Source: a virus (Duplodnaviria; Caudoviricetes). Taken from it: DNA of 60,993 nt. Both the position numbers and the translations under genes were made by a program. Under the pieces are notes generated by a model. It did not search any database and was not told the DNA's origin. It was given only the letters and a program-made list of their open reading frames with translations. The stretch's first letter is position 1. The number at the start of each line of letters is the position of its first letter. The stretch is taken from positions 1-60,993 of IMG/VR virus record IMGVR_UViG_3300033516_000069. One strand, 5' to 3'. Shown in pieces: positions 1 through 31,053 of this stretch.

Positions 1-80
1 ACCAATCAAGGATTGGCTTCGTTTCGAAAACGAATGGGCGCTTCGGCGCTATGGAGCGTGACCATAACCTTCCGCCATGC

Positions 81-156
81 ACAAATCACGCGCACGATGC
101 ACAAAACGTGCGCGAGGTACACAAAACGGGCGCGTGACCCACAAAACACACGCAAC
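81..156. repeat. four ~20-bp periodic units, each starting (C)ACAAA
   Basis: ACAAA at exactly 81, 101, 121, 141 followed by CGC-rich tails; tails mutually complementary. Confidence 0.75.
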
Positions 157-158
157 AC

Positions 159-232
159 TGGATCTTGATGTAACGGTAGCATAACTGACTCTGAATCAGT
201 TCGTGGTGGTTCGAATCCACCAGATCCAACCA
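159..232 (+). tRNA. tRNA-Gln(CUG)
   Basis: TGGATCT/AGATCCA acceptor, ACTGA-CTCTGAA-TCAGT anticodon arm, GTTCGAATC T loop, CCA. Confidence 0.95.
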
Positions 233-235
233 TAT

Positions 236-310
236 GGAAGCGAAGTCAAAGTAGTGCGACACTGGATTGTGGCTCCAGGTAATAGGGTGCAACTCCCTAC
301 GCTCCCTCCA
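236..310 (+). tRNA. tRNA-His(GUG), atypical (no G-1:C73)
   Basis: CTGGA-TTGTGGC-TCCAG anticodon arm; GGAAGCG/CGCTCCC acceptor with one mismatch; U73, CCA. Confidence 0.8.
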
Positions 311-314
311 AATT

Positions 315-388
315 GGGCTATTAGTATATCGGTAGTACATTTCTCTGGCAGAGAAAAGGGCTGAGTTCGATTCTCAGATGGTCCACCA
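315..388 (+). tRNA. tRNA-Ala(GGC)
   Basis: TTTCT-CTGGCAG-AGAAA; G3:U70 Ala identity pair; CCA. Confidence 0.93.
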
Positions 389-390
389 AT

Positions 391-546
391 TTCAGTGAAA
401 AGGAATCTTATTAAGGTTATGTCCAAAGTAACCCACGGGGTTCGACTCCCCAGCCTGAGCCATTTGGGCAATGAGAACCGGGTTTCTATCGTCTAAACAA
501 GACACTCTAGTTTGAATTAAGAGAGATATAAGTCTGAGTAACTGAA
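391..546 (+). ncRNA. structured tRNA-like ncRNA, copy 1 (family unassigned)
   Basis: Terminal helix TTCAGT/ACTGAA; ends conserved with copy 2; internal T arm GGGG-TTCGACT-CCCC and downstream D-arm-like TCGTCTAAACAAGAC. Confidence 0.75.
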
Positions 547-551
547 TATAT

Positions 552-625
552 GCCGGATTCGGATAGTGGCATTCCGCCTGTTTCGTAATCAGGATACCGT
601 GGTTCAATTCCACGATCCGGCACCA
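552..625 (+). tRNA. tRNA-Thr(CGU)
   Basis: GCCGGAT/ATCCGGC acceptor, loop TTCGTAA, CCA. Confidence 0.9.
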
Positions 626-626
626 A

Positions 627-795
627 AATCAGTGAATGGGAATCTTTTGTGGTACTGACGGCGATATGCCCGATGTAACCTAGTGGGGTTCAAATCCCCA
701 ATCGCCCGTCAATGGGCGGTTGTTCACACTTACGGAAAAGTGGTTAGTTTAAATAAAACACTCCTTGTGAGAGATATAAGTCCGAGTAACTGATT
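627..795 (+). ncRNA. structured tRNA-like ncRNA, copy 2
   Basis: AATCAGT/ACTGATT terminal helix; TCAGTGAA..GGAATCTT ... GAGAGATATAAGTCCGAGTAACTGA; T arm TGGGG-TTCAAAT-CCCCA; D-arm-like TAGTTTAAATAAAAC. Confidence 0.75.
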
Positions 796-800
796 AATAT

Positions 801-874
801 GCTGTTTTAGGATAGTGGTATTCTGCATCCTTGGTATGGATGAGACGGGGGTCCGATTCCCTCAAACAGCACCA
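801..874 (+). tRNA. tRNA-Thr(GGU)
   Basis: CATCC-TTGGTAT-GGATG; GCTGTTT/CAAACAGC acceptor region; CCA. Confidence 0.9.
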
Positions 875-878
875 TCAT

Positions 879-951
879 ACGTAGTGCAAGCCGGGCTTGC
901 GCCGAACTCCAAATCCGGTTGAGGTTGGTTCAACTCCAACACTACGTGCCA
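879..951 (+). tRNA. tRNA-Trp(CCA)
   Basis: ACGTAGT/ACTACGT acceptor, loop CTCCAAA, G73, CCA. Confidence 0.85.
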
Positions 952-1195
952 GAGCGATTGCTGAGTTGACATGAAAAAAATCAAAATAGGCAATTGATAA
1001 CGCGGATAAAAGCCCACTAACACCGCTACACAATAAAGTTAAACATCGACCTCGTAGGGGAAGATGGTGAGCAACATCTAAGGACCATGGAAAGAAAACT
1101 CTGAAATGAGGTAGGTATCCATGTGACGCGGGGGTTTCCCTTTAACCCGCTAAACCAAAAGAAACAGTATGGTGTATGCCACACTGAGGGAGCCA

Positions 1196-1270
1196 CCGCA
1201 TGTAGTACAATGGTTAGTACATTCGTCTGATACACGAAAGATCCTAGTTCGATTCTAGGTTTGCGGACCA
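1196..1270 (+). tRNA. tRNA-Ile(GAU)
   Basis: TTCGT-CTGATAC-ACGAA; GTTCGATTC; CCA. Confidence 0.9.
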
Positions 1271-1274
1271 TCAT

Positions 1275-1351
1275 AGGCACTATCTTCACTGGTTGTGAAG
1301 GCTCGTCTGATAAGCGATTTAAGCTGGGTTCGATTCCCAGGGTGCCCACCA
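1275..1351 (+). tRNA. tRNA-Ile(GAU), second divergent copy
   Basis: TCGT-CTGATAA-GCGA; GGTTCGATTCC; CCA. Confidence 0.87.
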
Positions 1352-1356
1352 TTCAT

Positions 1357-1432
1357 CAGTCTGTGGGATAGAAGTTCTGTCCACTTGTTTTGGGAACAAG
1401 GGGTGCTGGAGCGTTACCAGCCAGATTGACCA
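1357..1432 (+). tRNA. tRNA-Pro(UGG), aberrant T loop
   Basis: CAGTCTG/CAGATTG acceptor; CTTGT-TTTGGGA-ACAAG; T loop AGCGTTA; CCA. Confidence 0.82.
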
Positions 1433-1437
1433 TTCAT

Positions 1438-1512
1438 GCTCGTATCTTCTATGTAGTAAGAATCCCGATTCTCAATCGGATAAACAGAGTGCAAGTCTCT
1501 GTACGAGTACCA
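1438..1512 (+). tRNA. tRNA-Glu(CUC)
   Basis: GCTCGTA/TACGAGT acceptor; CCGA-TTCTCAA-TCGG; CCA. Confidence 0.88.
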
Positions 1513-1540
1513 AATATATCTGTAACACTTGAAGCGGATT

Positions 1541-1548
1541 TATAAATA
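1541..1548 (+). promoter_or_regulatory. T4-type late promoter TATAAATA
   Basis: Exact motif 5 nt before ATG 1554; recurs before many genes. Confidence 0.7.
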
Positions 1549-1553
1549 ATTGT

Positions 1554-1958
1554 ATGGAAAAGAACGACGGAGACTCTGACAGATTCCGCCCAACTCAGAT
1601 GCATCCAATCCATGAGTTGACAAAAAGAACAGACAAAATCCCAAAAGGCTTTCTATGTCCTTCTTGTGGACACCTTGCCGTAGATGAAGATGAATTACTT
1701 GGCGCAACGTGTCCAAAGTGCCTACAACAGTGGCTCATAGAGCAAAAAGTTCAACAAATGGTTCCTATCAGTGAATTGCAGGACGAAAGAGAATCGGCAT
1801 TGGTTCATACTATCGTGGTTTCTGAAAAGTTGAAAATAGATTTTGATACGCCACCATACGATGATACAACGAAGATAATGCCTAATATAGATGATATGGT
1901 AATACAAAAGAAAATAAAGAAAGTAACGGATTCTGATGATAGAATACCGGGACTATAA
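1554..1958 (+). CDS. hypothetical protein with Zn-ribbon (CPSC..CPKC)
   Basis: 134-aa ORF filling the gap between tRNAs, two CxxC pairs. Confidence 0.75.
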   Translation: MEKNDGDSDRFRPTQMHPIHELTKRTDKIPKGFLCPSCGHLAVDEDELLGATCPKCLQQWLIEQKVQQMVPISELQDERESALVHTIVVSEKLKIDFDTPPYDDTTKIMPNIDDMVIQKKIKKVTDSDDRIPGL

Positions 1959-1961
1959 CAT

Positions 1962-2038
1962 GCCCTTGTGATGAAATTGGCAAACATGTCAGCCTTAGAA
2001 GCTGAATCTTGCAGGTTCGACTCCTGTCGGGGGCACCA
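1962..2038 (+). tRNA. tRNA-Leu(UAG), short variable loop
   Basis: TCAGC-CTTAGAA-GCTGA; 5-nt variable region; A73 CCA. Confidence 0.92.
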
Positions 2039-2042
2039 TAAT

Positions 2043-2117
2043 GCGCGTCTAGTTTAGTGGTCTGAACGCTTGATTGACATTCAAGAGGTTCTGGTTCAAT
2101 TCCAGGGATGCGTACCA
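2043..2117 (+). tRNA. tRNA-Val(GAC)
   Basis: CTTGA-TTGACAT-TCAAG; GCGCGTC/GATGCGT; CCA. Confidence 0.92.
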
Positions 2118-2119
2118 GT

Positions 2120-2244
2120 AAGGTTGATTGCAGCAATCCAAATCCAAAAACTAACTGTAAATTAGAAGGACTTGGTTCGAATCCAAGCTCGCCCTAAGCA
2201 AGCGATGTGGTGTACCGGTAGCACAAAACAAGGATCAACCTGTA
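2120..2244 (+). ncRNA. circularly permuted tRNA mimic (YrlA/Y-RNA-like) carrying a GUA anticodon-type arm
   Basis: Closing helix AGGTTGAT/ATCAACCT; order anticodon arm (CTAA-CTGTAAA-TTAG), T arm (CTTGG-TTCGAAT-CCAAG), closed hairpin, D arm (GTGT-ACCGGTA-GCAC). Confidence 0.75.
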
Positions 2245-2269
2245 ACGCCCCGAAGCTAAAGGGGCACAT

Positions 2270-2343
2270 GCCCGATTCGTCTAACAGAAGGACACAACGC
2301 TACGAACGTTGGAATTTAGGTGCAAATCCTAAGTTGGGTGCCA
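2270..2343 (+). tRNA. tRNA-Arg(ACG)
   Basis: CAACG-CTACGAA-CGTTG; CCA. Confidence 0.92.
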
Positions 2344-2348
2344 ATCAT

Positions 2349-2424
2349 GGTGAGAGTAAGTTATGTAGTAAACTACTGGTCTGTGAAACCGGAAAAGCGA
2401 TTGCAAGTATCGTCTCTCACCCCA
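2349..2424 (+). tRNA. tRNA-His(GUG), canonical G-1:C73
   Basis: G-GTGAGAG/CTCTCAC-C-CCA; loop CTGTGAA. Confidence 0.9.
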
Positions 2425-2437
2425 AGTTTCTTTTCAT

Positions 2438-2524
2438 GTGTCCGTGGCGTAACTAGCAGCCGCACTACTTTGAGAGAGTAGCGGGAGAAATCCCGTGTAG
2501 GTGCAAATCCTATCGGGCACACCA
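2438..2524 (+). tRNA. tRNA-Leu(GAG), long variable arm
   Basis: CTACT-TTGAGAG-AGTAG; V arm CGGG-AGAAAT-CCCG; CCA. Confidence 0.9.
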
Positions 2525-2531
2525 TTTTCAT

Positions 2532-2607
2532 CTGAGTGTAGGTCAACAGTAGACGGCTCGTTTTGGAAGCGAGAGGTAGCTTGGTGCGACTCCAGCCACT
2601 CAGACCA
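2532..2607 (+). tRNA. tRNA-Pro(UGG)
   Basis: CTGAGTG/CACTCAG; CTCGT-TTTGGAA-GCGAG; CCA. Confidence 0.88.
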
Positions 2608-2718
2608 AGTAGTTAGTCCTGAAAAACTTACGGTTAAAAACCGAACAGTTAAGGTCTGTTAGTTCACAGTCAGAGTCGAGAAACTAACCGCTGCGCCAAG
2701 CGTTCTGACGGGCGATAT

Positions 2719-2792
2719 CGGACATTGGGATAATGGTAATCCGCCAGCTTCGGGAGCTTGAGACGGCAGTTCGATTCTGCCATGTCCGACCA
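2719..2792 (+). tRNA. tRNA-Pro(CGG)
   Basis: CGGACAT/ATGTCCG; loop TTCGGGA; GTTCGATTC; CCA. Confidence 0.9.
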
Positions 2793-2817
2793 GATAAATA
2801 ATGATAAGGAGACTACC

Positions 2818-2955
2818 ATGGCTACATTATCATTACTCGCAAGTATCACATCAATCTTGGTTAATCTTTACACTCTCTGGTCAGTTCGCAAGACACTGAT
2901 TCAAGGTGCTAAAAATGCTGCGGAAGAAGCAGAAAAGATTATCAAGAAAATTTAA
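2818..2955 (+). CDS. small single-TM membrane protein (45 aa)
   Basis: AAGGAG RBS before ATG 2818; hydrophobic N-terminal helix, charged tail. Confidence 0.65.
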   Translation: MATLSLLASITSILVNLYTLWSVRKTLIQGAKNAAEEAEKIIKKI

Positions 2956-2956
2956 T

Positions 2957-3031
2957 CGTGGTGGGTTGGAATAGTTTCCAAACGACCCTCATAAGGTCTT
3001 TAAGAGAGTGCAATCCTCTACTCCACGACCA
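2957..3031 (+). tRNA. tRNA with CAU anticodon (Met or Ile2)
   Basis: GACC-CTCATAA-GGTC; CGTGGTG/CTCCACG; CCA; lacks initiator GGG/CCC stem. Confidence 0.8.
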
Positions 3032-3042
3032 GCGCAATTGGA

Positions 3043-3163
3043 TGCTTAGACCGGAAAATCCCGCAAGGGTCTTAGTGTAATGGTTAGCACCCCCGCCCAA
3101 AGCGGGGAGATCAGGTTCGAATCCTGTTAAAGTAACGCTAGAGTTTACCGGTCGAAAGAAGTA
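3043..3163 (+). ncRNA. acceptor-less tRNA mimic on a helix with GUCGAAAG motif (Y-RNA-like)
   Basis: D arm TAGTGTAATGGTTAGCAC, GC-rich arm CCCCGC-CCAAA-GCGGGG, T arm CAGG-TTCGAAT-CCTG enclosed by GACCGG/CCGGTC then GAAAG loop and TGCTT/AAGTA; no CCA. Confidence 0.7.
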
Positions 3164-3271
3164 GGGCGGCGGCGGTTGCCCGAAAAGCTCCGACAGTGGA
3201 TGATTGCCGCCACTATAAAACAAAGAGCGGTCGCGTTCAACACCCCCTAGTGCGTTAAACTTCGGGACCAT

Positions 3272-3348
3272 GCGGTTATAGCCCAATCGGCAGAGGCGTT
3301 AGGTCGAGAACCTAAATGTTACAAGTTCGAATCTTGTTAGCCGCACCA
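3272..3348 (+). tRNA. tRNA-Leu(GAG), short variable loop, C33
   Basis: TTAGG-TCGAGAA-CCTAA; GCGGTTA/TAGCCGC; A73 CCA. Confidence 0.85.
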
Positions 3349-3465
3349 AATCTGAGCCAATAGAGGACGTAAAGGCACTAATTAATCCGTAATCTTTAGG
3401 CTTTGCAAAGCTGAAAAGATGCAGGCTGCTTTATGGGTGGTGCGACTCCACACAGAACACTTTTT

Positions 3466-3779
3466 GTAAATCAGACAATCGCTGGGGACTCCAAACCTAG
3501 AGGAAAGTCGGGGCACCAAACAAAAATCTACTGGTTAACGACCAGCATACTTTTTCAGTAGGTATGAGGAAAGGGCAGTAAGAAATAAACCGCCGATGGC
3601 TTCGCAAGAAGATCAGGTAAGGGTTGAAAATTCGGCTTAAGAAACCGGACTTCTCATAGTAATATGAGTCGAGTGTAACCCCTAGATGGTGCAAGGCAGT
3701 AATTGCCGCTTGAGGTCAACAGTAATGTTGATCCTAGACAAATGATTGTCCAACGACAGAACCCCGCTTACCGATTTAC
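3466..3779 (+). ncRNA. rnpB: RNase P RNA (bacterial type A-like, compact, ~314 nt)
   Basis: P1 GTAAATC/GATTTAC; P2 GACAATC/GATTGTC; CR-I GAGGAAAGTCGGGGCAC; CAGGTAAGGGT; GGTGCAAG; CCTAGACAAATGA; CR-V ACAGAACCCCGCTTAC complementary to CR-I (P4). Confidence 0.93.
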
Positions 3780-3798
3780 TTTACTGGAATTTTTTCAT

Positions 3799-3877
3799 GC
3801 CCCTGTAGTAGAACTGGCAAATACTAACGGCTTAAACCCGTTGAAACCTGTGGGTTCGAATCCCACTAGGGGCACCA
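3799..3877 (+). tRNA. tRNA-Leu(UAA), short variable loop
   Basis: AACGG-CTTAAAC-CCGTT; GGTTCGAATCC; CCA. Confidence 0.92.
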
Positions 3878-3883
3878 TTTCAT

Positions 3884-3958
3884 AGGCGATTAATTCAATG
3901 GTGGAATGTTGCTTTCACATAGCAAATGCCACTGGTTCGATTCCAGTATCGCCTACCA
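3884..3958 (+). tRNA. tRNA-Val(CAC)
   Basis: AGGCGAT/ATCGCCT; TTGCT-TTCACAT-AGCAA; CCA. Confidence 0.92.
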
Positions 3959-4076
3959 TAACGCTGCATCGACGGGCAAATATCGGTGTCTCTAGGAAAT
4001 TGCAGAAGATCACCTAGTATAATATAAAACATTAAATGTTGCATGCGTTAGAGTTTATATAGGAAAACTCATTAAT

Positions 4077-4155
4077 GGGGCTGTAGCAGAACCAGCATAT
4101 GCGGTCGTTTCAAAAGCGGCGTCATTTGTGGGTGCAAATCCCACCAGCCCTACCA
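4077..4155 (+). tRNA. tRNA-Leu(CAA), short variable loop
   Basis: GGGGCTG/CAGCCCT; GTCGT-TTCAAAA-GCGGC; CCA. Confidence 0.88.
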
Positions 4156-4159
4156 TCAT

Positions 4160-4236
4160 GTCGGTGTAGCCCAATTGGAAGAGGCATTTCATTCAGGGTG
4201 AAACCAGTAAGAGTTCGAATCTCTTCACCGATACCA
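4160..4236 (+). tRNA. tRNA-Leu(CAG), short variable loop
   Basis: GTCGGTG/CACCGAT; TTTCA-TTCAGGG-TGAAA; CCA. Confidence 0.9.
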
Positions 4237-4278
4237 TTGTGTTTTCCACAAGTATGTTGACTATTTAAGCAAACCCGA

Positions 4279-4286
4279 TATAAATA
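4279..4286 (+). promoter_or_regulatory. T4-type late promoter TATAAATA
   Basis: Exact motif upstream of HNH gene. Confidence 0.65.
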
Positions 4287-4306
4287 TATTATATAGGGGA
4301 TGCTTA

Positions 4307-5020
4307 ATGAGACATATAAGTAAATTTGATTTATTGACAATTGAAGATTTGAAAGCAGTAATAAACCAATCAGATAGTTATAGAGAAGTTATTTTAAAAG
4401 TTGGTCTTGATGGTGAGTGTGGGTGTCACTATATAAAGCTAAAATCTATAATTAAAAATAATAATATAGATGTTAGTCATATGACTAGAAGAAAGAATTC
4501 TATTCATCATAATAAATATTTCGGAAAAAGACCAATAGAAAATTATTTGGTTAAATCTAATAAAAAATTGTTAGGGCATTTAAAAATTAGACTTTTAGAA
4601 GAGAGTGTCTTTGCTAATAAATGTGCATTGTGTGGTCAACTACCAATACATAATGGATTAAAATTGACTCTTCAACTGGATCACATAAATGGTGATCCAA
4701 CTGATAATACTAAAGAAAATTTGAGATTTTTATGCCCAAATTGTCACTCACAAACATTAAATTGGGGATCTAAAAATTCCAAGTTGAAGCCAACACCAGT
4801 AATTAAGATTAAGAAAGAGAGAAAGTGTAAATTTTATACAACAAAAGAAGAATTAGAAAAATTATTAAAAGAAAAATCTATGAGAGAAATAGGAAAAATG
4901 TTTTCTGTATCTGACAATGCTATAAAGAAGCGGTGTATAAAATTAGGAATTGAGCTTGAGTCTTACTATTGGCAAAATAAACTTCTTCATAAAGGCACGC
5001 CGGGATCGTTCAACGGATAG
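4307..5020 (+). CDS. HNH homing endonuclease with C-terminal HTH
   Basis: CALCG...LQLDHINGDPTDNTKENLRFLCPNCH; SMREIGKMFSVSDNAIKKR; very AT-rich; 3' end overlaps tRNA-Arg. Confidence 0.92.
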   Translation: MRHISKFDLLTIEDLKAVINQSDSYREVILKVGLDGECGCHYIKLKSIIKNNNIDVSHMTRRKNSIHHNKYFGKRPIENYLVKSNKKLLGHLKIRLLEESVFANKCALCGQLPIHNGLKLTLQLDHINGDPTDNTKENLRFLCPNCHSQTLNWGSKNSKLKPTPVIKIKKERKCKFYTTKEELEKLLKEKSMREIGKMFSVSDNAIKKRCIKLGIELESYYWQNKLLHKGTPGSFNG

Positions 5021-5073
5021 GACAAGACCCTCCGAAGGTCAAAATCTAGGTTCAATTCCTAGTCCCGGTGCCA
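4999..5073 (+). tRNA. tRNA-Arg(CCG)
   Basis: GCCGGGA/TCCCGGT; GACC-CTCCGAA-GGTC; CCA. Confidence 0.92.
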
Positions 5074-5074
5074 C

Positions 5075-5102
5075 TTGACAAGCATGAATTCTTTGGTAGA
5101 AT
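5075..5102 (+). promoter_or_regulatory. sigma70-like early promoter
   Basis: TTGACA-N16-TAGAAT with TGn extension; similar TTGACT..TAGAAT at 6051-6077. Confidence 0.6.
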
Positions 5103-5108
5103 CTATTC

Positions 5109-5438
5109 ATGCCTCCGAAGCAGCCAAAACTTAAAATGTTTATAGTCCTTCGATGGGATCTTCCAGCCGAAGCGGCTGTAGTCGCGGCTGCTCACGCCTC
5201 TATCGGAACTTATCTGACATTCATAGAGAATCCTCTAATGCAGGAGTGGCAGAAAACTTCCTTCATCAAGCGCATTTGTAAAGCCTTTGACCACAGCCAC
5301 TTCCAGCGGCTCAAGCTGCTGGGAATGCACCGTGTTTTCACAGAGTCATGTCTTGGTAACTCGGAAGTATCCATCGGTTTCGACATGGTTCCCCCACCCT
5401 ACTACACCATGGAAGAAATTCCACTCTGGACAAGATAA
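5109..5438 (+). CDS. peptidyl-tRNA hydrolase, Pth2 family
   Basis: KMFIVLRWDL...AAAHAS...EW...KRI pattern of the PTH2 fold; adjacent to tRNA array. Confidence 0.75.
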   Translation: MPPKQPKLKMFIVLRWDLPAEAAVVAAAHASIGTYLTFIENPLMQEWQKTSFIKRICKAFDHSHFQRLKLLGMHRVFTESCLGNSEVSIGFDMVPPPYYTMEEIPLWTR

Positions 5439-5448
5439 ATAGAAACGT

Positions 5449-6054
5449 ATGAAAAGAATATTCCTAGACATGGATGGTGTGATCGTAAACTTCGCAAAAG
5501 GCTACGAGGATCGCGTCAACGAACGAGAACCCGGCTATCTAGAAAAGATCGGCTACAATGGAGACTTCAAGCAAATTGAAGATTTTATAAAGGCTGAATT
5601 TGAACGTATAGCCCCAAACGATAAAGAAAAGAAAAAAGCCAAGTACAGAGCTTCGAATAAGTTCTGGAGCTTCGTCACCGGTGATAAGCAATGGTGGGTT
5701 GACCTCCCCTGGATGCCAGATGGTAAGGAGCTTTTCAATAATCTCAGAACGTTAAGACAAAATGAAGTCGTGTCGGAGTTCACCATCCTTAGCGCACCAT
5801 CGAAGGTCGATCCGTGTGTCCCAGGAGCCAAGCAGGCGTGGCTTGACAAGCATGGTGTGTCGAGCAGCTTCGACAGAATCATTTTCGAAAATGACAAATT
5901 CAAGTACGCTGAAAGTTTCAACGATATCCTCATTGACGATACTCCTAAGAAACTGGATGCGTGGCAAAATGCTGGCGGAACTCCCCTGTTACATACGAGT
6001 ACCGCAAATACCCTTAAAATCCTCAACGAGATTCTGTTACAAGATAACACTTGA
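5449..6054 (+). CDS. HAD-family 5'(3')-deoxyribonucleotidase
   Basis: IFLDMDGV, ILSAP, K..WL, LIDD motifs. Confidence 0.88.
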   Translation: MKRIFLDMDGVIVNFAKGYEDRVNEREPGYLEKIGYNGDFKQIEDFIKAEFERIAPNDKEKKKAKYRASNKFWSFVTGDKQWWVDLPWMPDGKELFNNLRTLRQNEVVSEFTILSAPSKVDPCVPGAKQAWLDKHGVSSSFDRIIFENDKFKYAESFNDILIDDTPKKLDAWQNAGGTPLLHTSTANTLKILNEILLQDNT

Positions 6055-22395: not shown

Positions 22396-23484
22396 ATGAC
22401 CGATACCGCTGTTCTTATTAAAGAATTGGTAACAAACATACGAAAGTTTTCAAGAGGTAATATTTACCTTTTTGGATCAACACTTCGTAACTTTTTAATA
22501 TGTGGTGTCGGCTCGTCACTTGATGTTGTGGTGAATGAAAAGGATAAACAAATACAAGCTGAGATCCTTGAAACCGTTTCTACATACACCGCTGCTAATT
22601 TTATTTTCAACTCGGATGTTGATTATAGTCACGAATTTTTCACCATAGATAACATCTACGCCAATATAGATGAGAATTTTGATGGGAGCTTGGAGATTCA
22701 GTCAACCAACAATGGTTTAGTTGATTTGAACAAAAGAATCATTAAGCTAACTAAAGCTGGTAAAGAGCGAGTTAAAGATTCCCCTGAGTTCATTCTCGAC
22801 ACCATAGCATTTGTTGCAAAGAATAAGTTTATTTTAGATGCTGGCGCTATTTCGTCGTTTATGCAACTTAGATCAAGAATCAAAACATGTTCTCCAGCAA
22901 GGCTATATAAGTTTGTAACGGGTATTGCCGGTTATGAACACCCGCGTAAGGTTATTTCACTCATCAACACCCTTGGTATATCTAAGGAACTGTTTAATAT
23001 CAATCTCACGGAAACATCATCGGTTAACCATTTGCGCGAAGAGGATTATTGTGAAATGGTTGCTATTGTTTTCTCAGATATGGAAAAAAATGAGCTACGA
23101 AAGTATCTTATTGGATTTCCGCCAAGAGAAATAGAGGCTATAAAAAATATTTCAACCGCAATAGAACTTATAGAATCAGAAGATGAAGTGACTGCTAGAA
23201 ATATTTTAAAAACGATAAATGGCTATCGTGTTCAAAACATGATACGTCTTTTATATGCACTAAAATTCAAAACTTTAGCTAAATTAGTCAGAGGTCAAAA
23301 AGATTGCGTATTTAACTTAAATAAGTTATGTATCGATGAATCCATAATACGCTCTACGTTTAAAATTGACAATGAAGAGAAGGTTAAGAAGATACTTGAC
23401 AAAGCGTTGCAGAAGGTTATATTGGAACCTGAATTCAATGAAAAGTATAAGATCCTTTCCTACCTCAATACAGAAAGAGAATAA
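22396..23484 (+). CDS. CCA-adding enzyme/poly(A) polymerase-family homologue with eroded active site
   Basis: YLFGSTLRNFL...SLDV, FFTIDN, GLVDLNKRII, RL..F, C-terminal IL..AL..V..EP..N. Confidence 0.72.
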   Translation: MTDTAVLIKELVTNIRKFSRGNIYLFGSTLRNFLICGVGSSLDVVVNEKDKQIQAEILETVSTYTAANFIFNSDVDYSHEFFTIDNIYANIDENFDGSLEIQSTNNGLVDLNKRIIKLTKAGKERVKDSPEFILDTIAFVAKNKFILDAGAISSFMQLRSRIKTCSPARLYKFVTGIAGYEHPRKVISLINTLGISKELFNINLTETSSVNHLREEDYCEMVAIVFSDMEKNELRKYLIGFPPREIEAIKNISTAIELIESEDEVTARNILKTINGYRVQNMIRLLYALKFKTLAKLVRGQKDCVFNLNKLCIDESIIRSTFKIDNEEKVKKILDKALQKVILEPEFNEKYKILSYLNTERE

Positions 23485-24335: not shown

Positions 24336-26315
24336 ATGTCTGACGCTACTACCAACATCAAGCCTGCTATTCCAGCCAAAAAGGAAGTTGAGCTTCACTC
24401 GTCAATGAAGTTGATGTTTGGTCGCACATCTGCTTGGCAAGTCGTTAACAACAAAGCAGTTGAGTATGGAAGCATATTCGAATGTAGTGGTAAGGGTCGT
24501 GGCGGTCACTATACGGGTGATAAGTTCGCACAATCGAATTTCTGGAGGTCTACTGTAGACAGGTTCTGGCAGTATGATGACTTCACGTTCGATGGTATCG
24601 CCGCAGCATCGTATCTGATCAATGCTCACAAGTACAAGATTTGGTTTAACCCCGCCAAGTTCTACGACTACCTCTACATGTGTGTGGCGTATGAGGGAGA
24701 TTTCGAAGTACCGGAAAGCGTCAAGGAAGATGAAAAGAAGCTTAAGGAGTACCATGGCAGGCGTGAAAAGGAATGGGGTGAAGTGATTTCTGGTACTTGC
24801 AAAAAGTACGAAGATCAACTCAATAAGTACGGGTTTGATCGGGCACTCGCCCAGGCTCTCAAAAAGTGTGAAGAAAAAAAGACATGGGAGTTCAATACAT
24901 GGATTCGTTGGTGCAACACGCTTGTAATCAACCCTTTCGTTTCTCAAAACTGTGAGTCTGTGTTTGTTCACGAAATGTTCCATATTATCTGGAATCACCT
25001 TTCTCGCGTCGAAGAGCGCGACTCGGTTCAGTGGAACATCGCCACCGACTTCGCAATCAATCAATCTATCAATTTCACCAAGGAATTCGCGGCTGGTCTG
25101 ATCACTGACCATAACGAGAAGTTTCATAAAAGGTTTGTTTTGAGTACCATTAAGTATCTCATGCAGACCGATGCCGATGTTGCTAAGTCACTCAAGGAGG
25201 ACTACAAGATCACCGAAAAGACCGATTGGGACAAGATTTCTCCTAAGCTGCTTAAGGAACTGCACGATACGTACATGATGGAGTCGCCTAACGGTTACTC
25301 CAAGTCCAGCAAGTTCGCCAATAAGAGTGGTGACCTGTACTATCGCATTCTGTTGGAATCTTGCATCATCATGAGTGGCGCTGGAATGGCTGGCTATGAT
25401 AGCCACGGTAAGTGGAATGATAAGGGCGAAGGCTCTGGTGAAGGGATGGAAGGTGATCAGGAAGGTGCCGGTGGTAAGAAGTTTACCAAGGGTGCTTCCA
25501 AGGGCACGGAAACCTGTGAAAAAGCTAAAGAAGGCGACAAGCCTGACTGGCACCCTGACAGTAACAAGGAACGCGGTAAGGGTGGTCGCCAGGAACACAA
25601 GGGGTTCGATTCTATGGAAGCCGCTGCTGCTCGTCGTGAGGTCAAGGCGACTGTCAAGGACACTCTTGAGCGTTGCGGCGTAAACCCCGACGATCCCGAA
25701 GAGATTGAGAAGGCACTCAAGGCAACTCCTGGTATGGAAATATTGGGCGCTCTCATTCTCGACTGGTTCAAGGTCAAGCGCAAGAACTGGAAGCAGCTTT
25801 TGAAGAAAGAGTTGACTAACTATTCCAACCCACAGGATATCGACTACACAATGTCCCGTGAAAGCCGCGTCATGGAAGGTTTCTTCCCCGGCAAAAAGCG
25901 TGAGCGTGGCTTGGACGTGATTTTCCAGGTCGATACCAGCGGCTCTATCAACCTCAAAGACTGGAACGACTTCGTGAATCAGATTGAGGAAATCGCCCGT
26001 TCCTGTGACGTGAAGCTCATGCGTTGCTTGCAGGTTCACTCGGTCATCGCATGCGATGAAATGGTCAATCTGCGGAAGGTCAAGGATTGGCGTATCAAGG
26101 AAACTGGTGGAACGACCATGGCGCTCGGTCCCGTTAAGCTGCGTAAGGAAGGAAACAAAAAGCTCCTTATCATATTCACTGACGGGTATACCGATGTCTT
26201 TGAACAAAAAGACTTCCCGTTCAAGATAATGATTTTCCTGTCCCGTGGTAACAGCCACAATACGGAAATCTTTAAGGAACGTGGGTTTACCGTCATCAAC
26301 CAGGATGAAGAGTGA
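24336..26315 (+). CDS. metallopeptidase (HExxH) + vWA domain protein (DUF2201-like)
   Basis: HEMFH..WNIATDFAIN; DTSGS, GGT, FTDG. Confidence 0.9.
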   Translation: MSDATTNIKPAIPAKKEVELHSSMKLMFGRTSAWQVVNNKAVEYGSIFECSGKGRGGHYTGDKFAQSNFWRSTVDRFWQYDDFTFDGIAAASYLINAHKYKIWFNPAKFYDYLYMCVAYEGDFEVPESVKEDEKKLKEYHGRREKEWGEVISGTCKKYEDQLNKYGFDRALAQALKKCEEKKTWEFNTWIRWCNTLVINPFVSQNCESVFVHEMFHIIWNHLSRVEERDSVQWNIATDFAINQSINFTKEFAAGLITDHNEKFHKRFVLSTIKYLMQTDADVAKSLKEDYKITEKTDWDKISPKLLKELHDTYMMESPNGYSKSSKFANKSGDLYYRILLESCIIMSGAGMAGYDSHGKWNDKGEGSGEGMEGDQEGAGGKKFTKGASKGTETCEKAKEGDKPDWHPDSNKERGKGGRQEHKGFDSMEAAAARREVKATVKDTLERCGVNPDDPEEIEKALKATPGMEILGALILDWFKVKRKNWKQLLKKELTNYSNPQDIDYTMSRESRVMEGFFPGKKRERGLDVIFQVDTSGSINLKDWNDFVNQIEEIARSCDVKLMRCLQVHSVIACDEMVNLRKVKDWRIKETGGTTMALGPVKLRKEGNKKLLIIFTDGYTDVFEQKDFPFKIMIFLSRGNSHNTEIFKERGFTVINQDEE

Positions 26316-26402
26316 GTCACACGCTATACCCCACTAAAGGGTAACTTAAGGCTTGTGTTTCGGATAAACATCCTATCATTAGATACAAGAGGACACAATA
26401 TC

Positions 26403-27611
26403 ATGGCTAATCAGGAAATGAACATCCAGCAAATCACCGAGATTACCAAGTTCTCGTTGGAGGCTAGTACCAAATTCAAGCTCCCAGTTTGTTATTGGGG
26501 TGTTCATGGTACTGGTAAAACAGAACTGGTCAAGCAGATTGCACAGGATCTGGGGTATAACCTCGTAGTCCTTCACCTTGCTATGCAGGATATCTGCGAC
26601 CTTATCGGTATCCCGTCTAAGCAGGAGTACAAGATGCCTGACGGGTCCATTGATACGATCCAGGTATGGTCCTGCCCACAGTGGCTTTACAACGCCAACA
26701 AGAGCTTTGAAGAGACGGGTAAGCCTAATCTGTTCTTCCTTGACGAGTTCAACCGTGGTAACCGTTTCGTCCTTTCCGCCATGCTCCCATTCTTGATCGA
26801 AGGTGTGCTGCACCAGCACAAGATCGGTCCCAAGGACGCCGTGATCGCTGCTGCCAACCCCGCCAACGAGAAGTATGAAGTTAACGAGCTTACCGACGAA
26901 GCTCTTCTCAACCGTCTTGGACATATCGTATTCAAGCCTACCCACAAGGAATATGTGGCGTATCTTAAGCGCACTGGTATGGATAAGACCACAATCAAAG
27001 TTGTTGAGAACCAACCGGCGTACACCAAGATCGCAGATTTCGACCTTGGCTTCGAAGTCAAGCCTTCTCGTCGTTCCATTTGCAACGTCATGTCGCTGCT
27101 TGGCTCCAAGGGTCGCACATGGGTCGCTGAACACGGCAGTTACGTCATCGAAGCGTATCTCGGTGCCAGCTTCCGTGATGAGTGGATGGCTGAGTTCGCT
27201 TCCAGGGACGAGTCCATCACCCTCGACATGCTGGAAAACTTCGACCAGAACAAGCAGGATATCATCAATGCGATCAGCACTTCCGTTACGGAACAGGGAA
27301 AAAAGATGGCTGCTCATCGTACCGATATTCTGTCTAAGACCCTTGATATCATCAAGACGCATATCAAGGACATCAGGGATAAGATCGGCGCTAAAGACGT
27401 GACTTGGATGATCAAGTTCTTTTCTATCCCGATCATTCCTGACGATGCTTGTGCTGCCGTGTTCATGGCTAACCCTGATATGAAGCGGGTCATGATGCGG
27501 AACACAGATGTCAATATCTTACTCACCAACTTCCTCCACTCTAAGAACATAATTCCTCTCGACGGTGTTGCGCCGTGGGCTACCGATGCCGACAAGCGCA
27601 CCGTCGTTTAA
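26403..27611 (+). CDS. MoxR-like AAA+ ATPase
   Basis: GVHGTGKT, DLIGIP, FLDEFNR, AAANP, ALLNR, PSRRS. Confidence 0.92.
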   Translation: MANQEMNIQQITEITKFSLEASTKFKLPVCYWGVHGTGKTELVKQIAQDLGYNLVVLHLAMQDICDLIGIPSKQEYKMPDGSIDTIQVWSCPQWLYNANKSFEETGKPNLFFLDEFNRGNRFVLSAMLPFLIEGVLHQHKIGPKDAVIAAANPANEKYEVNELTDEALLNRLGHIVFKPTHKEYVAYLKRTGMDKTTIKVVENQPAYTKIADFDLGFEVKPSRRSICNVMSLLGSKGRTWVAEHGSYVIEAYLGASFRDEWMAEFASRDESITLDMLENFDQNKQDIINAISTSVTEQGKKMAAHRTDILSKTLDIIKTHIKDIRDKIGAKDVTWMIKFFSIPIIPDDACAAVFMANPDMKRVMMRNTDVNILLTNFLHSKNIIPLDGVAPWATDADKRTVV

Positions 27612-30134: not shown

Positions 30135-30388
30135 ATATGTTTTATAAAAAGAATAGAGCTAAATGTCTGAATTGTGATGATGTTATCGAATCAGATAGCT
30201 CTACAGATTGGACTGAATGCTCATGTGGTTCCCTTCGTATTCGTGGCGGATCGTCATTTCTAGAAAGGGAGGCTAAACCTGGAAAATTCAAAGAACTATC
30301 AGTTATAGAATTTCCAGAAGATATGACGTTCAGAGAAGATGTGACCGATCAACCTCCACCCCCACTTCCTCCAGGGTATAGACAATGA
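30131..30388 (+). CDS. Zn-binding hypothetical protein
   Basis: N.AKCLNCDDVIES...CSCG...GG. Confidence 0.75.
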   Translation: MNMFYKKNRAKCLNCDDVIESDSSTDWTECSCGSLRIRGGSSFLEREAKPGKFKELSVIEFPEDMTFREDVTDQPPPPLPPGYRQ

Positions 30389-30420
30389 CACTATTAAAAA
30401 ATAAACAGAAAGAGAAAAAC

Positions 30421-31053
30421 ATGTCCAACACAGAAACCCCGGCGATTGACCCTGAGACAACATCACCAACTGGTTATATTGTTTTTGTTACTGGCGAGAT
30501 TACACAGGAATTGGCAGATGAAGTTGCGAAGCAAATGATTGTATTTGATATGCAAAATACTGTTAAGGGCGAGCAGCTTCCTATCACACTTATAGTAAAC
30601 TCTCCTGGTGGTGGGTTATGTGCTGGCTGGCAGATTTGTGATGTGATGGATTATATCGCTACTCCTGTATATACTACTGGATTAGGGGAAATAGCATCTG
30701 CTGCGCTTATGATATTTATGAATGGTGAGCCAGGGCATCGTGTATTGACTGACCGCACCTCAATAATGAGCCATCGTTATTCATGGGGTGTTTCTGGCAA
30801 TCATGCGGAACTTATTGCGGCTGAATCTGAATTTAAAAATGTTCATAAGCGCATTCTGGAGCATTATATTGAATGTACTGGACTTACTAAAGCAGAGGTT
30901 GAAGAGCAGCTTCTTCGACCATATAACGTCTGGTTGTCGCCAAGTCAGGCACTTAAGCTTGGACTCGCTGATAAAATTTTCCGTACCAAGAAAAGTAAAA
31001 ACGTAAAGAATGTAAAGAAAGTCAAGAAAATAAAGAAAGAAATCAAGGAATAA
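30421..31053 (+). CDS. clpP: ClpP-like protease subunit
   Basis: NSPGG, G.IASAA (Ser), IMSH (His), ALKLGLADKI. Confidence 0.88.
   Translation: MSNTETPAIDPETTSPTGYIVFVTGEITQELADEVAKQMIVFDMQNTVKGEQLPITLIVNSPGGGLCAGWQICDVMDYIATPVYTTGLGEIASAALMIFMNGEPGHRVLTDRTSIMSHRYSWGVSGNHAELIAAESEFKNVHKRILEHYIECTGLTKAEVEEQLLRPYNVWLSPSQALKLGLADKIFRTKKSKNVKNVKKVKKIKKEIKE

Follow-up and report, generated by a model that had tools for sequence, protein, structure and literature searches.

We analysed the whole of the IMG/VR virus record IMGVR_UViG_3300033516_000069 (60,993 bp, hereafter the window; CheckV completeness 28%), which is a fragment of an uncultured large phage, and focused on two structured elements, A and B, that lie between its tRNA genes. 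A tRNA operon occupies the left 5 kb of the window on the + strand, on which both elements and all of their parts also lie, and ARAGORN called 20 tRNAs in it. Element A, from the 5′ to the 3′ strand of its closing helix P1, extends over 392–545 and fills the spacer (389–551) between tRNA-Ala(GGC) at 315–388 and tRNA-Thr(CGU) at 552–625. Element B (629–793) fills the next spacer (626–800), which is followed by tRNA-Thr(GGU) at 801–874. Both start 3 nt past the CCA of the upstream tRNA and end 6–7 nt short of the next one; the other spacers of the array measure 1–7 nt. No open reading frame (ORF) of note overlaps A or B, no reading frame is common to the two, and no promoter or terminator patterns were found within the elements, nor any specific to them. 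We think that A and B are probably paralogous structured noncoding RNAs, i.e., circularly permuted tRNA mimics that came from a tandem pair of tRNA genes.

The original prediction had described a duplicated structured RNA with shared 5′ and 3′ end motifs, and these motifs are present where it had placed them. A 23-mer at the 3′ end occurs twice in the window (523–545 and 771–793), with 0 occurrences expected from 100 shuffles. MAFFT aligned the ends of A and B cleanly and misaligned the interior. In a model-guided alignment, the 5′ domain was identical in 16/19 columns and the 3′ domain in 22/24, whereas the interior was identical in 49 of the 79 aligned columns, with 79 more columns gapped; that is, identity over aligned columns was ~90% at the ends and 62% in the interior. 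A covariance model built from A alone, with its structure drawn by hand, scored B at 55.2 bits (E ~3e-13), and the next match in window 1–6000 reached 9 bits. Recovery of B by this model, together with the near-identical ends, confirmed the duplication of a structured noncoding RNA. Because the ends are this similar while the tRNA-Thr paralogues that follow A and B are identical in 49/74 columns, the unit of element plus tRNA-Thr looks like an old tandem duplication in which the element ends were kept nearly constant.

The two ends of each element pair to form a stalk. In A, the 5′ strand of the stalk (392–408) consists of P1 (392–396), GAA (397–399), P2 (401–403) and P3 (405–408), and its 3′ strand (524–545) consists of P3 (524–527), an AUAAG internal loop (528–532), P2 (533–535), AGUA (537–540) and P1 (541–545). 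The same parts lie in B at 629–633, 634–636, 638–640 and 642–645 (5′ strand, 629–645) and at 772–775, 776–780, 781–783, 785–788 and 789–793 (3′ strand, 772–793). P1 (UCAGU/ACUGA) and P3 (AUCU/AGAU) are common to the two copies, as is a P2 of 3 bp, the first pair of which (401/535 in A) is A-U in A and G-C in B. Between P2 and P3 lies an asymmetric internal loop with A opposite AUAAG. AGUA invariantly faces GAA between Watson–Crick helices (397–399 with 537–540 in A, 634–636 with 785–788 in B), and 5′-AGUA-3′ opposite 5′-GAA-3′ is what we take to be the loop-E or sarcin-ricin (bulged-G) consensus. A terminal helix abutting a loop-E-type GAA/AGUA and an ATCT/AGAT pairing had both been predicted, and both were found in the two copies; the likeness of the stalks to loop E or sarcin-ricin RNA is one of sequence signature. 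We rejected a kink-turn in the stalk, as the non-bulged strand has no GA after the helix, and processing of the stalk by RNase III, as the helices are at most 5 bp.

The conserved ends pair across the entire spacer and the elements contain no promoter or terminator, as would be expected if they were processing spacers only, the end-to-end stalk being a nuclease site that separates the tRNAs of the operon. We consider such a role very unlikely: the longest unbroken helix, of 5 bp, is too short for RNase III, the other, short spacers of the array need no device of this kind, and the maintenance of the tRNA-like core inside the stalk would be left unexplained.

The order of parts in this core is the same in both elements, namely a long variable-type arm (V; GGU.../...ACC, 19 nt in A), a T arm, an acceptor-like hairpin (AS), a D-arm-like hairpin and two more hairpins, H5 and H6. 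In A, the variable-type arm (415–433; pair probability ~0.85) has a 6-bp stem and the 7-nt loop GUCCAAA. It is followed by the T arm (436–452; GGGG/CCCC stem, loop UUCGACU), AS (453–469; CCA of the loop at 460–462, then U), a thermodynamically weak D-arm-like hairpin (474–487; AGAA/UUCU, loop CCGGGU with GG, pair probability ~0.1) and, spanning 491–523, H5 in the position of the anticodon arm (491–503; GUCU-AAACA-AGAC) and H6 (505–523; CUC...GAG, 13-nt loop). In B, an inner hairpin extends the variable-type arm (651–680), and the T arm (684–700; UGGGG/CCCCA, loop UUCAAAU) is followed by a 7-bp AS (701–720; loop GUCAAU at 708–713, pair probability 0.98–1.0), the D-arm-like hairpin (724–743; UCAC/GUGG, loop ACUUACGGAAAA with GG) and, over 747–771, H5 (747–759; GUUU-AAAUA-AAAC) and H6 (761–771; CUC-CUUGU-GAG). 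The register of the D arm in B is uncertain, as the minimum-free-energy fold moves it by 1–2 nt.

In both copies, the 7-bp AS directly follows the T stem, the 4-bp D hairpin with GG in its loop lies 3–4 nt further, H5 (4 bp, loop AAAYA) begins 3 nt past it, and a single A leads to H6, which abuts P3. Counted as in a tRNA, H5 would stand exactly one nucleotide after the D stem and carry the 7-nt loop UAAAYAA. In our structural model, the core of A and B makes up an entire cloverleaf whose arms are circularly permuted, the ends exiting beside the variable arm. The permuted T-arm/D-arm core of the original prediction was thus borne out by the order of T arm, closed acceptor-like hairpin and D arm. 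As for the interior hairpins listed there, the T arm, the D arm and the CTC..GAG hairpin stood, and the series is corrected to V, T arm, acceptor-like hairpin, D arm, H5 and H6.

In the alignment of A with B, which had been fitted to the structure under test (a caveat that belongs with the opposing points gathered below), 68/68 scored cells form standard pairs, and 7 pairs are altered on both sides between the copies, four of them in AS, with P2, the D arm and H5 contributing one each. When the partners were slid by 1–3 columns as a control, 34–59% of the cells paired and 0–1 double changes were seen. Natural variation supports the fold independently of the fitted alignment. A 13,672-nt contig from a lake-water run (X1) spans window positions 150–874 at ~98% identity and continues for 11.7 kb upstream of position 150. 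Its A is 100% identical, and the nearby tRNA-Gln is altered at 3 places. Its B carries 10 substitutions (671, 699–703, 705, 708, 709 and 720), all of them transitions, and one inserted A. Seven of the 10 affect the T and AS stems, where they touch six base pairs, of which 6/6 stay standard; in pair 701/720, both sides changed, from A-U to G-C. These comparisons demonstrate the fold and its selective maintenance, and the earlier claim that structure was kept over sequence agrees with both the seven two-sided changes and the X1 substitutions.

Several observations weigh against this reading. The minimum free energy is −35.6 kcal/mol for A and −49.4 kcal/mol for B, compared with −31.2 and −39.0 kcal/mol when the model is enforced, and A folds no better than shuffled sequences (z −0.39; the z value of B is −2.05). 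Pair probabilities are low for P2 (0.01–0.02) and the D arm (≤0.1) in both elements, for P3 in A (0.02; ~0.5 in B) and, in B, for the T arm (0.10–0.25), H5 (0.12–0.13) and H6 (0.03). The stalk is nearly invariant, so just one stalk pair covaries. In addition, the covariation comes from two paralogues and one near-identical variant, with no homologue found outside the phage lineage.

A search pattern made of the 3′ strand of the variable-type arm plus the T arm gave 17 matches in JGI metagenomes, and 17/17 were ordinary class II tRNAs (Leu/Ser type); therefore, a class II tRNA appears to be the source of the core's 5′ half. Positions 392–462 of A are readable as a 71-nt worn tRNA with a CCA-anticodon arm, a T arm, the acceptor 3′ strand and G-CCA, the D arm being absent, and the remainder of A is readable as a second worn tRNA, in which H6 is a T-arm remnant with the loop UUUGAAU. 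Two worn tRNAs could also mean that A and B are functionless, decaying remnants of two tandem tRNA genes, the shared ends of which stem from recent duplication or gene conversion. The N-CCA-U of the acceptor loop would then be the trace of genes 1–2 nt apart; other tRNA-like debris lies in the same array, no homologues were found in the searches described below, and B is a substitution hot spot in X1. However, pairing between the 3′ acceptor strand of the first unit and the 5′ strand of the second has been kept through 4–5 double changes and one more in X1, all six substituted pairs survive in X1, the ends are far more alike than the interior, and A is unchanged in X1 while the nearby tRNA-Gln is not. 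We therefore regard decay as an unlikely explanation.

The AS loop reads G-CCA-U in A, G-UCA-AU in the B of the window and A-CCA-AU in B of X1; each of the three has a U immediately ahead of its 5′ acceptor strand. N-CCA and the preceding U are features that RNase P and the CCA machinery would need; N-CCA plus 1–2 nt is equally the leftover expected of two adjacent tRNA genes, so cleavage and charging are steps that we infer. In B of X1, the substitutions 708 G>A and 709 T>C yield A73 and CCA, and 705 C>T turns G3-C70 into G3:U70; the acceptor end then has G1-C72, G2-C71, G3:U70, A73 and CCA. G1-C72, G2-C71 and G3:U70 with A73-CCA make up the alanine identity set of tRNA-Ala and transfer-messenger RNA (tmRNA). 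A is ambiguous: G3:U70 arises in the register with a G73-CCA overhang and not in an alternative 7-bp register. A further point against our interpretation is that the B of the window has G3-C70, G73 and UCA; that is, neither the CCA nor the alanine features are fixed.

The acceptor features raise the question of a much-reduced two-piece tmRNA-like RNA, which would act on ribosomes after a cut in its acceptor loop and charging with alanine. As in two-piece tmRNA, which is matured by cutting of a linker, the gene is permuted, so that T arm and CCA-bearing 3′ acceptor strand precede the 5′ acceptor strand; the alanine identity set is present in the B of X1, and A has G3:U70 and G73-CCA in one register. 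Aquatic phages are described as carrying two-piece tmRNA genes (PMC9004378). In contrast to tmRNA, A and B are about a third of the size and have no mRNA-like region and no pseudoknots; the pieces of ~70–90 nt leave no room for pseudoknots or a tag frame, for which A and B share no frame in any case. They also have a full D arm and a hairpin in the anticodon position, unlike tmRNA, and the G3-C70 of the window's B does not fit. The tmRNA and tmRNA_permuted models (RF04321 and lineage models) gave no match at E≤10, ARAGORN called no tmRNA, and the window contains no SmpB gene. A and B are accordingly very improbable as tmRNA derivatives.

In A and B, the 3′ half is encoded ahead of the 5′ half and joined to it via the acceptor loop, as it would be if they were permuted precursors of true decoding tRNAs that are made circular and cut again in the manner of Cyanidioschyzon merolae, and as it is in the permuted tRNA genes known from red algae, green algae and Thermofilum pendens. 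Bacteria are not known to have the splicing endonuclease, and the setting of A and B is bacterial or phage. The algal and archaeal permuted tRNA genes, among which class II is over-represented, are described as having a bulge-helix-bulge at the junction and as ending as normal tRNAs (PMC3978253); their products are ligated into a circle and decode. In contrast, A and B have no bulge-helix-bulge at their ends and no canonical anticodon loop, the hairpin in the anticodon position having 3–4 bp and a loop (UAAAYAA) that lacks U33. The 40-nt stalk and two additional hairpins would also be surplus, and neither a match to the tRNA model (RF00005) at E≤10 nor an ARAGORN call was obtained within 391–546 or 627–795. 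We find a decoding tRNA precursor scarcely credible.

We then consider relatives of A and B. Rfam 15 at gathering score gave just tRNA and RNase P matches in the whole window, and at E≤10 (window 1–5600) nothing relevant overlapped A or B. The comparison with manA, YrlA, GOLLD and ROOL that had been proposed was made, and none of these matched either element even at E≤10; the suggestion that the RNA might be new thus held with respect to Rfam, with all four excluded as Rfam matches. A covariance model built from A plus B (R2) found A and B alone over 60 sources (543,794 bases), and just a 10.3-bit T-arm fragment over 40 whole viral records. Among GenBank phages, blastn matched just the tRNA-Thr. 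Of the protein-anchored IMG/VR searches, one gave nothing and the other gave two 29%-identical loci without the element. Patterns searched in IMG/VR gave 0 matches from the 3′ end and 3 matches with two anchors, all by chance and in coding DNA without tRNAs. A first pattern in JGI metagenomes gave 0 matches. Patterns in GTDB genomes gave 0 and then 2 chance matches (21.5 and 10.2 bits with R2); one chance match (L084) was rejected for its coding-like sequence and low R2 score.

The proposed covariance-model search therefore succeeded in that a model was built and A finds B, and yielded no homologue elsewhere. Likewise, the claim of a functional RNA family stands as far as the pairing is kept, whereas the known members of the family are the two paralogues of a single phage lineage; with the stalk as its defining feature, it is so far private to this lineage. 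Two proteins of the window had no tblastn match in 50,697 GenBank phage records, so the phage is distant from any cultured one. In a literature search, one set of listed papers had no mention of permuted tRNAs; in another, PMC3400036, PMC5733544 and PMC11143913 mention them together with bacteriophages. In three microbial-mat runs (X2–X4), we found merely short identical fragments or tRNA-only matches; by sequence identity, the fragments show that the same phage occurs elsewhere. More distant relatives in X3 and X4 have 1562 other letters between tRNA-Thr-like genes in place of B (window 611–799), and the X1 sequence diverges directly after position 874.

The architecture closest to that of A and B is YrlA. 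YrlA RNAs are described as having a stem in which the 5′ and 3′ ends pair, often a long variable arm, then a T arm, a closed acceptor-like stem and a D arm (PMC4201824), and A and B have this order of variable arm, T arm, closed acceptor stem and D arm within a 5′/3′ stem. The same source reports for Mycobacterium smegmatis YrlA a 7-bp acceptor stem that RNase P cuts in vitro and in vivo, with CCA gained, and gives GNCGAAN0-1G as the Ro-binding motif near the 5′ end (PMC4201824). A tRNA dimer has been proposed as the origin of YrlA (bioRxiv 10.1101/312249), and the reading of A as two worn tRNAs fits this proposal well. A and B differ from YrlA in the hairpins H5 and H6 between D arm and stalk, in the GAA/AGUA loop-E signature of the stalk, in the N-CCA encoded in the acceptor loop and in being a tandem pair inside a tRNA operon.

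If A and B were true YrlA or Y RNA members, a phage Ro60 (TROVE) protein that binds them would be encoded on the missing part of the genome. The layout described for YrlA (PMC4201824), the low completeness of the contig, which has 390 nt upstream of A, and the occurrence of YrlA-like RNAs in huge-phage tRNA arrays (L058/L063 and L056) speak for membership. However, the YrlA model RF02553 (gathering score 69) found no match in window 1–5600 at E≤10, although it gave 37.4 bits in Mycobacterium phage Alice, directly upstream of the Ro gene, 38.7 bits at L058:6116–6186 (= L063:1173–1243, viral record G003), where a TROVE (Ro60) ORF directly follows, and 41.8 bits at L056:1477–1606. GNCGAAN0-1G is absent from A and B, the 5′ ends of which read UCAGUGAAAAGG and UCAGUGAAUGGG, i.e., UCAGUGAA(A/U)(A/G)GG, and the stalk has the loop-E signature instead. 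YrlA would call for a Ro60 gene within ~4 kb on the same strand, and no TROVE domain was found in the 60,993-bp record, which begins 390 nt upstream of A and is 28% complete. Membership of YrlA proper is thus unlikely.

The phage T4 RNAs RNAC and RNAD (species 1 and 2) are described as stable small RNAs in a tRNA cluster with unknown role (PMC3014915, PMC9697503). They resemble A and B in their location in a phage tRNA cluster, and RNAC also has a T arm. However, they have no sequence or model similarity to A and B, and the T arm of RNAC is 3′-terminal and not permuted. When folded, they were rejected as relatives and are analogues by location only.

Our best reading is that A and B are functional tRNA mimics of the YrlA kind that match no described RNA family. 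What we infer of their expression, cleavage, charging and partner is as follows. A and B would be transcribed with the tRNA operon and freed by processing of the neighbouring tRNAs. In the core, the T arm would stack on the 7-bp acceptor-like hairpin, the GG of the D arm would serve the elbow, and a short hairpin would take the place of the anticodon arm beside a class-II-type long variable arm. A protein or RNA partner may dock on the stalk, as Ro60 does on its binding stem in bacterial Y RNAs. Because N-CCA is encoded in the acceptor loop with U at −1, RNase P might cut this loop, and by analogy a two-piece RNA with a tRNA-like CCA end would result; we see the chances of this as about evenly balanced. 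A phage-encoded class A RNase P RNA in the same operon (3463–3786, + strand; 179.4 bits against an Rfam gathering score of 100) is a candidate processing enzyme for the elements. An ORF at 22396–23484 has a weak match to tRNA nucleotidyltransferase (CCA-adding enzyme; phrog_2244, E 7.5e-7) and no Pfam match.

A bolder possibility, which we hold to be doubtful, is that A and B represent a new class of aminoacylatable two-piece tRNA-like RNAs, cut by RNase P and charged by alanyl-tRNA synthetase via G3:U70 and A73. The cut in the acceptor loop would be made by RNase P, which might be that of the phage itself, and the N-CCA end would be exposed by this cut or rebuilt by the putative CCA-adding enzyme of the phage. 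The sarcin-ricin-like stalk might then steer the alanyl-RNA, as a decoy or effector, towards the ribosome, a translation factor or a tRNA-targeting defence enzyme of the host.

tRNA mimics (tmRNA, Y RNAs and viral tRNA-like structures) act by borrowing the tRNA machinery, and here two permuted tRNA look-alikes are kept by a phage that already has over 20 tRNAs, an RNase P RNA of its own and a CCA-adding-enzyme-like ORF. If expressed, A and B would provide a new handle on the manipulation or protection of translation by large phages, and would be a living intermediate in the descent from a tRNA dimer that has been proposed for Y RNAs.

In a broader form, the doubtful, bolder possibility is that permuted tRNA mimics would be recurrent, unannotated parts of huge-phage tRNA operons that carry RNase P RNA. 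Using the CR-I motif of RNase P as an anchor, we matched 54 IMG/VR stretches, 23 of which had at least 5 tRNA genes. Class A RNase P RNA of at least 100 bits lay inside the tRNA array at 16 of 18 such tRNA-rich loci that were scanned (L010, L014, L018, L022, L023, L025, L029, L031, L033, L036, L037, L039, L045, L056, L058 and L059), and several of the contigs measured 160–460 kb. Among the papers listed by a literature search, none connected RNase P RNA with huge or jumbo phages. A descriptor for the module of T arm, 7-bp hairpin and D arm gave, in its stricter version, 27 matches on the forward and 0 on the reversed sequence. A looser version (T arm, perfect 5–9-bp hairpin and D arm with GG) gave 35 matches in 428 kb, 12 of them outside ARAGORN tRNAs and including A and B, compared with 4 on the reversed sequence.

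The ten non-tRNA matches besides A and B correspond to about 7 distinct elements, as L010/L037 and L029/L056 are duplicates. Matches with a 4-bp D stem begin at L037:7416, L056:1517, L056:3493, L058:6124, L023:4269 and L045:575, and weaker ones, with a 5-bp hairpin and a 3-bp D stem, at L029:4710 and L037:8864. The modules extend over L037:7406–7476 (= L010), L056:1473–1629 and 3426–3596 (= L029) and L058:6116–6186 (= L063:1173–1243). Two of these non-tRNA modules are the Rfam YrlA-like matches of 38.7–41.8 bits. The recurrence of such modules and of RNase P RNAs in huge-phage tRNA arrays suggests that 'spacers' merit systematic annotation.

In the window itself, the gap at 2118–2269 folds as a third permuted tRNA-like module (2121–2241), with a closing stem (2121–2129 with 2233–2241), a T arm (2171–2187; CUUGG-UUCGAAU-CCAAG), a hairpin of 4 bp and a GG-bearing D-like hairpin; the module matches no Rfam family, and its stalk is unlike those of A and B. 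The Rfam tRNA model also matched at 236–307 (37.3 bits), 1438–1509 (41.1 bits) and 2350–2421 (44.6 bits), and partially at 3073–3127 (23.2 bits), without ARAGORN calls, and these may be extra or degenerate tRNA genes. A 134-aa ORF (1554–1958) that matches no family and an HNH homing-endonuclease ORF (4307–5020; phrog_10822, E 3e-42) lie within the tRNA array. Baseplate genes are also found to the right of the operon, a VWA/DUF2201 protein gene stands beside a MoxR-type AAA ATPase gene (24336–27611), and a ClpP protease gene lies at 30385–31053. Directly upstream of the first tRNA, window 78–150 contains four spaced CACAAA(A/T)C-type words, which may be promoter or regulator sites of the operon.

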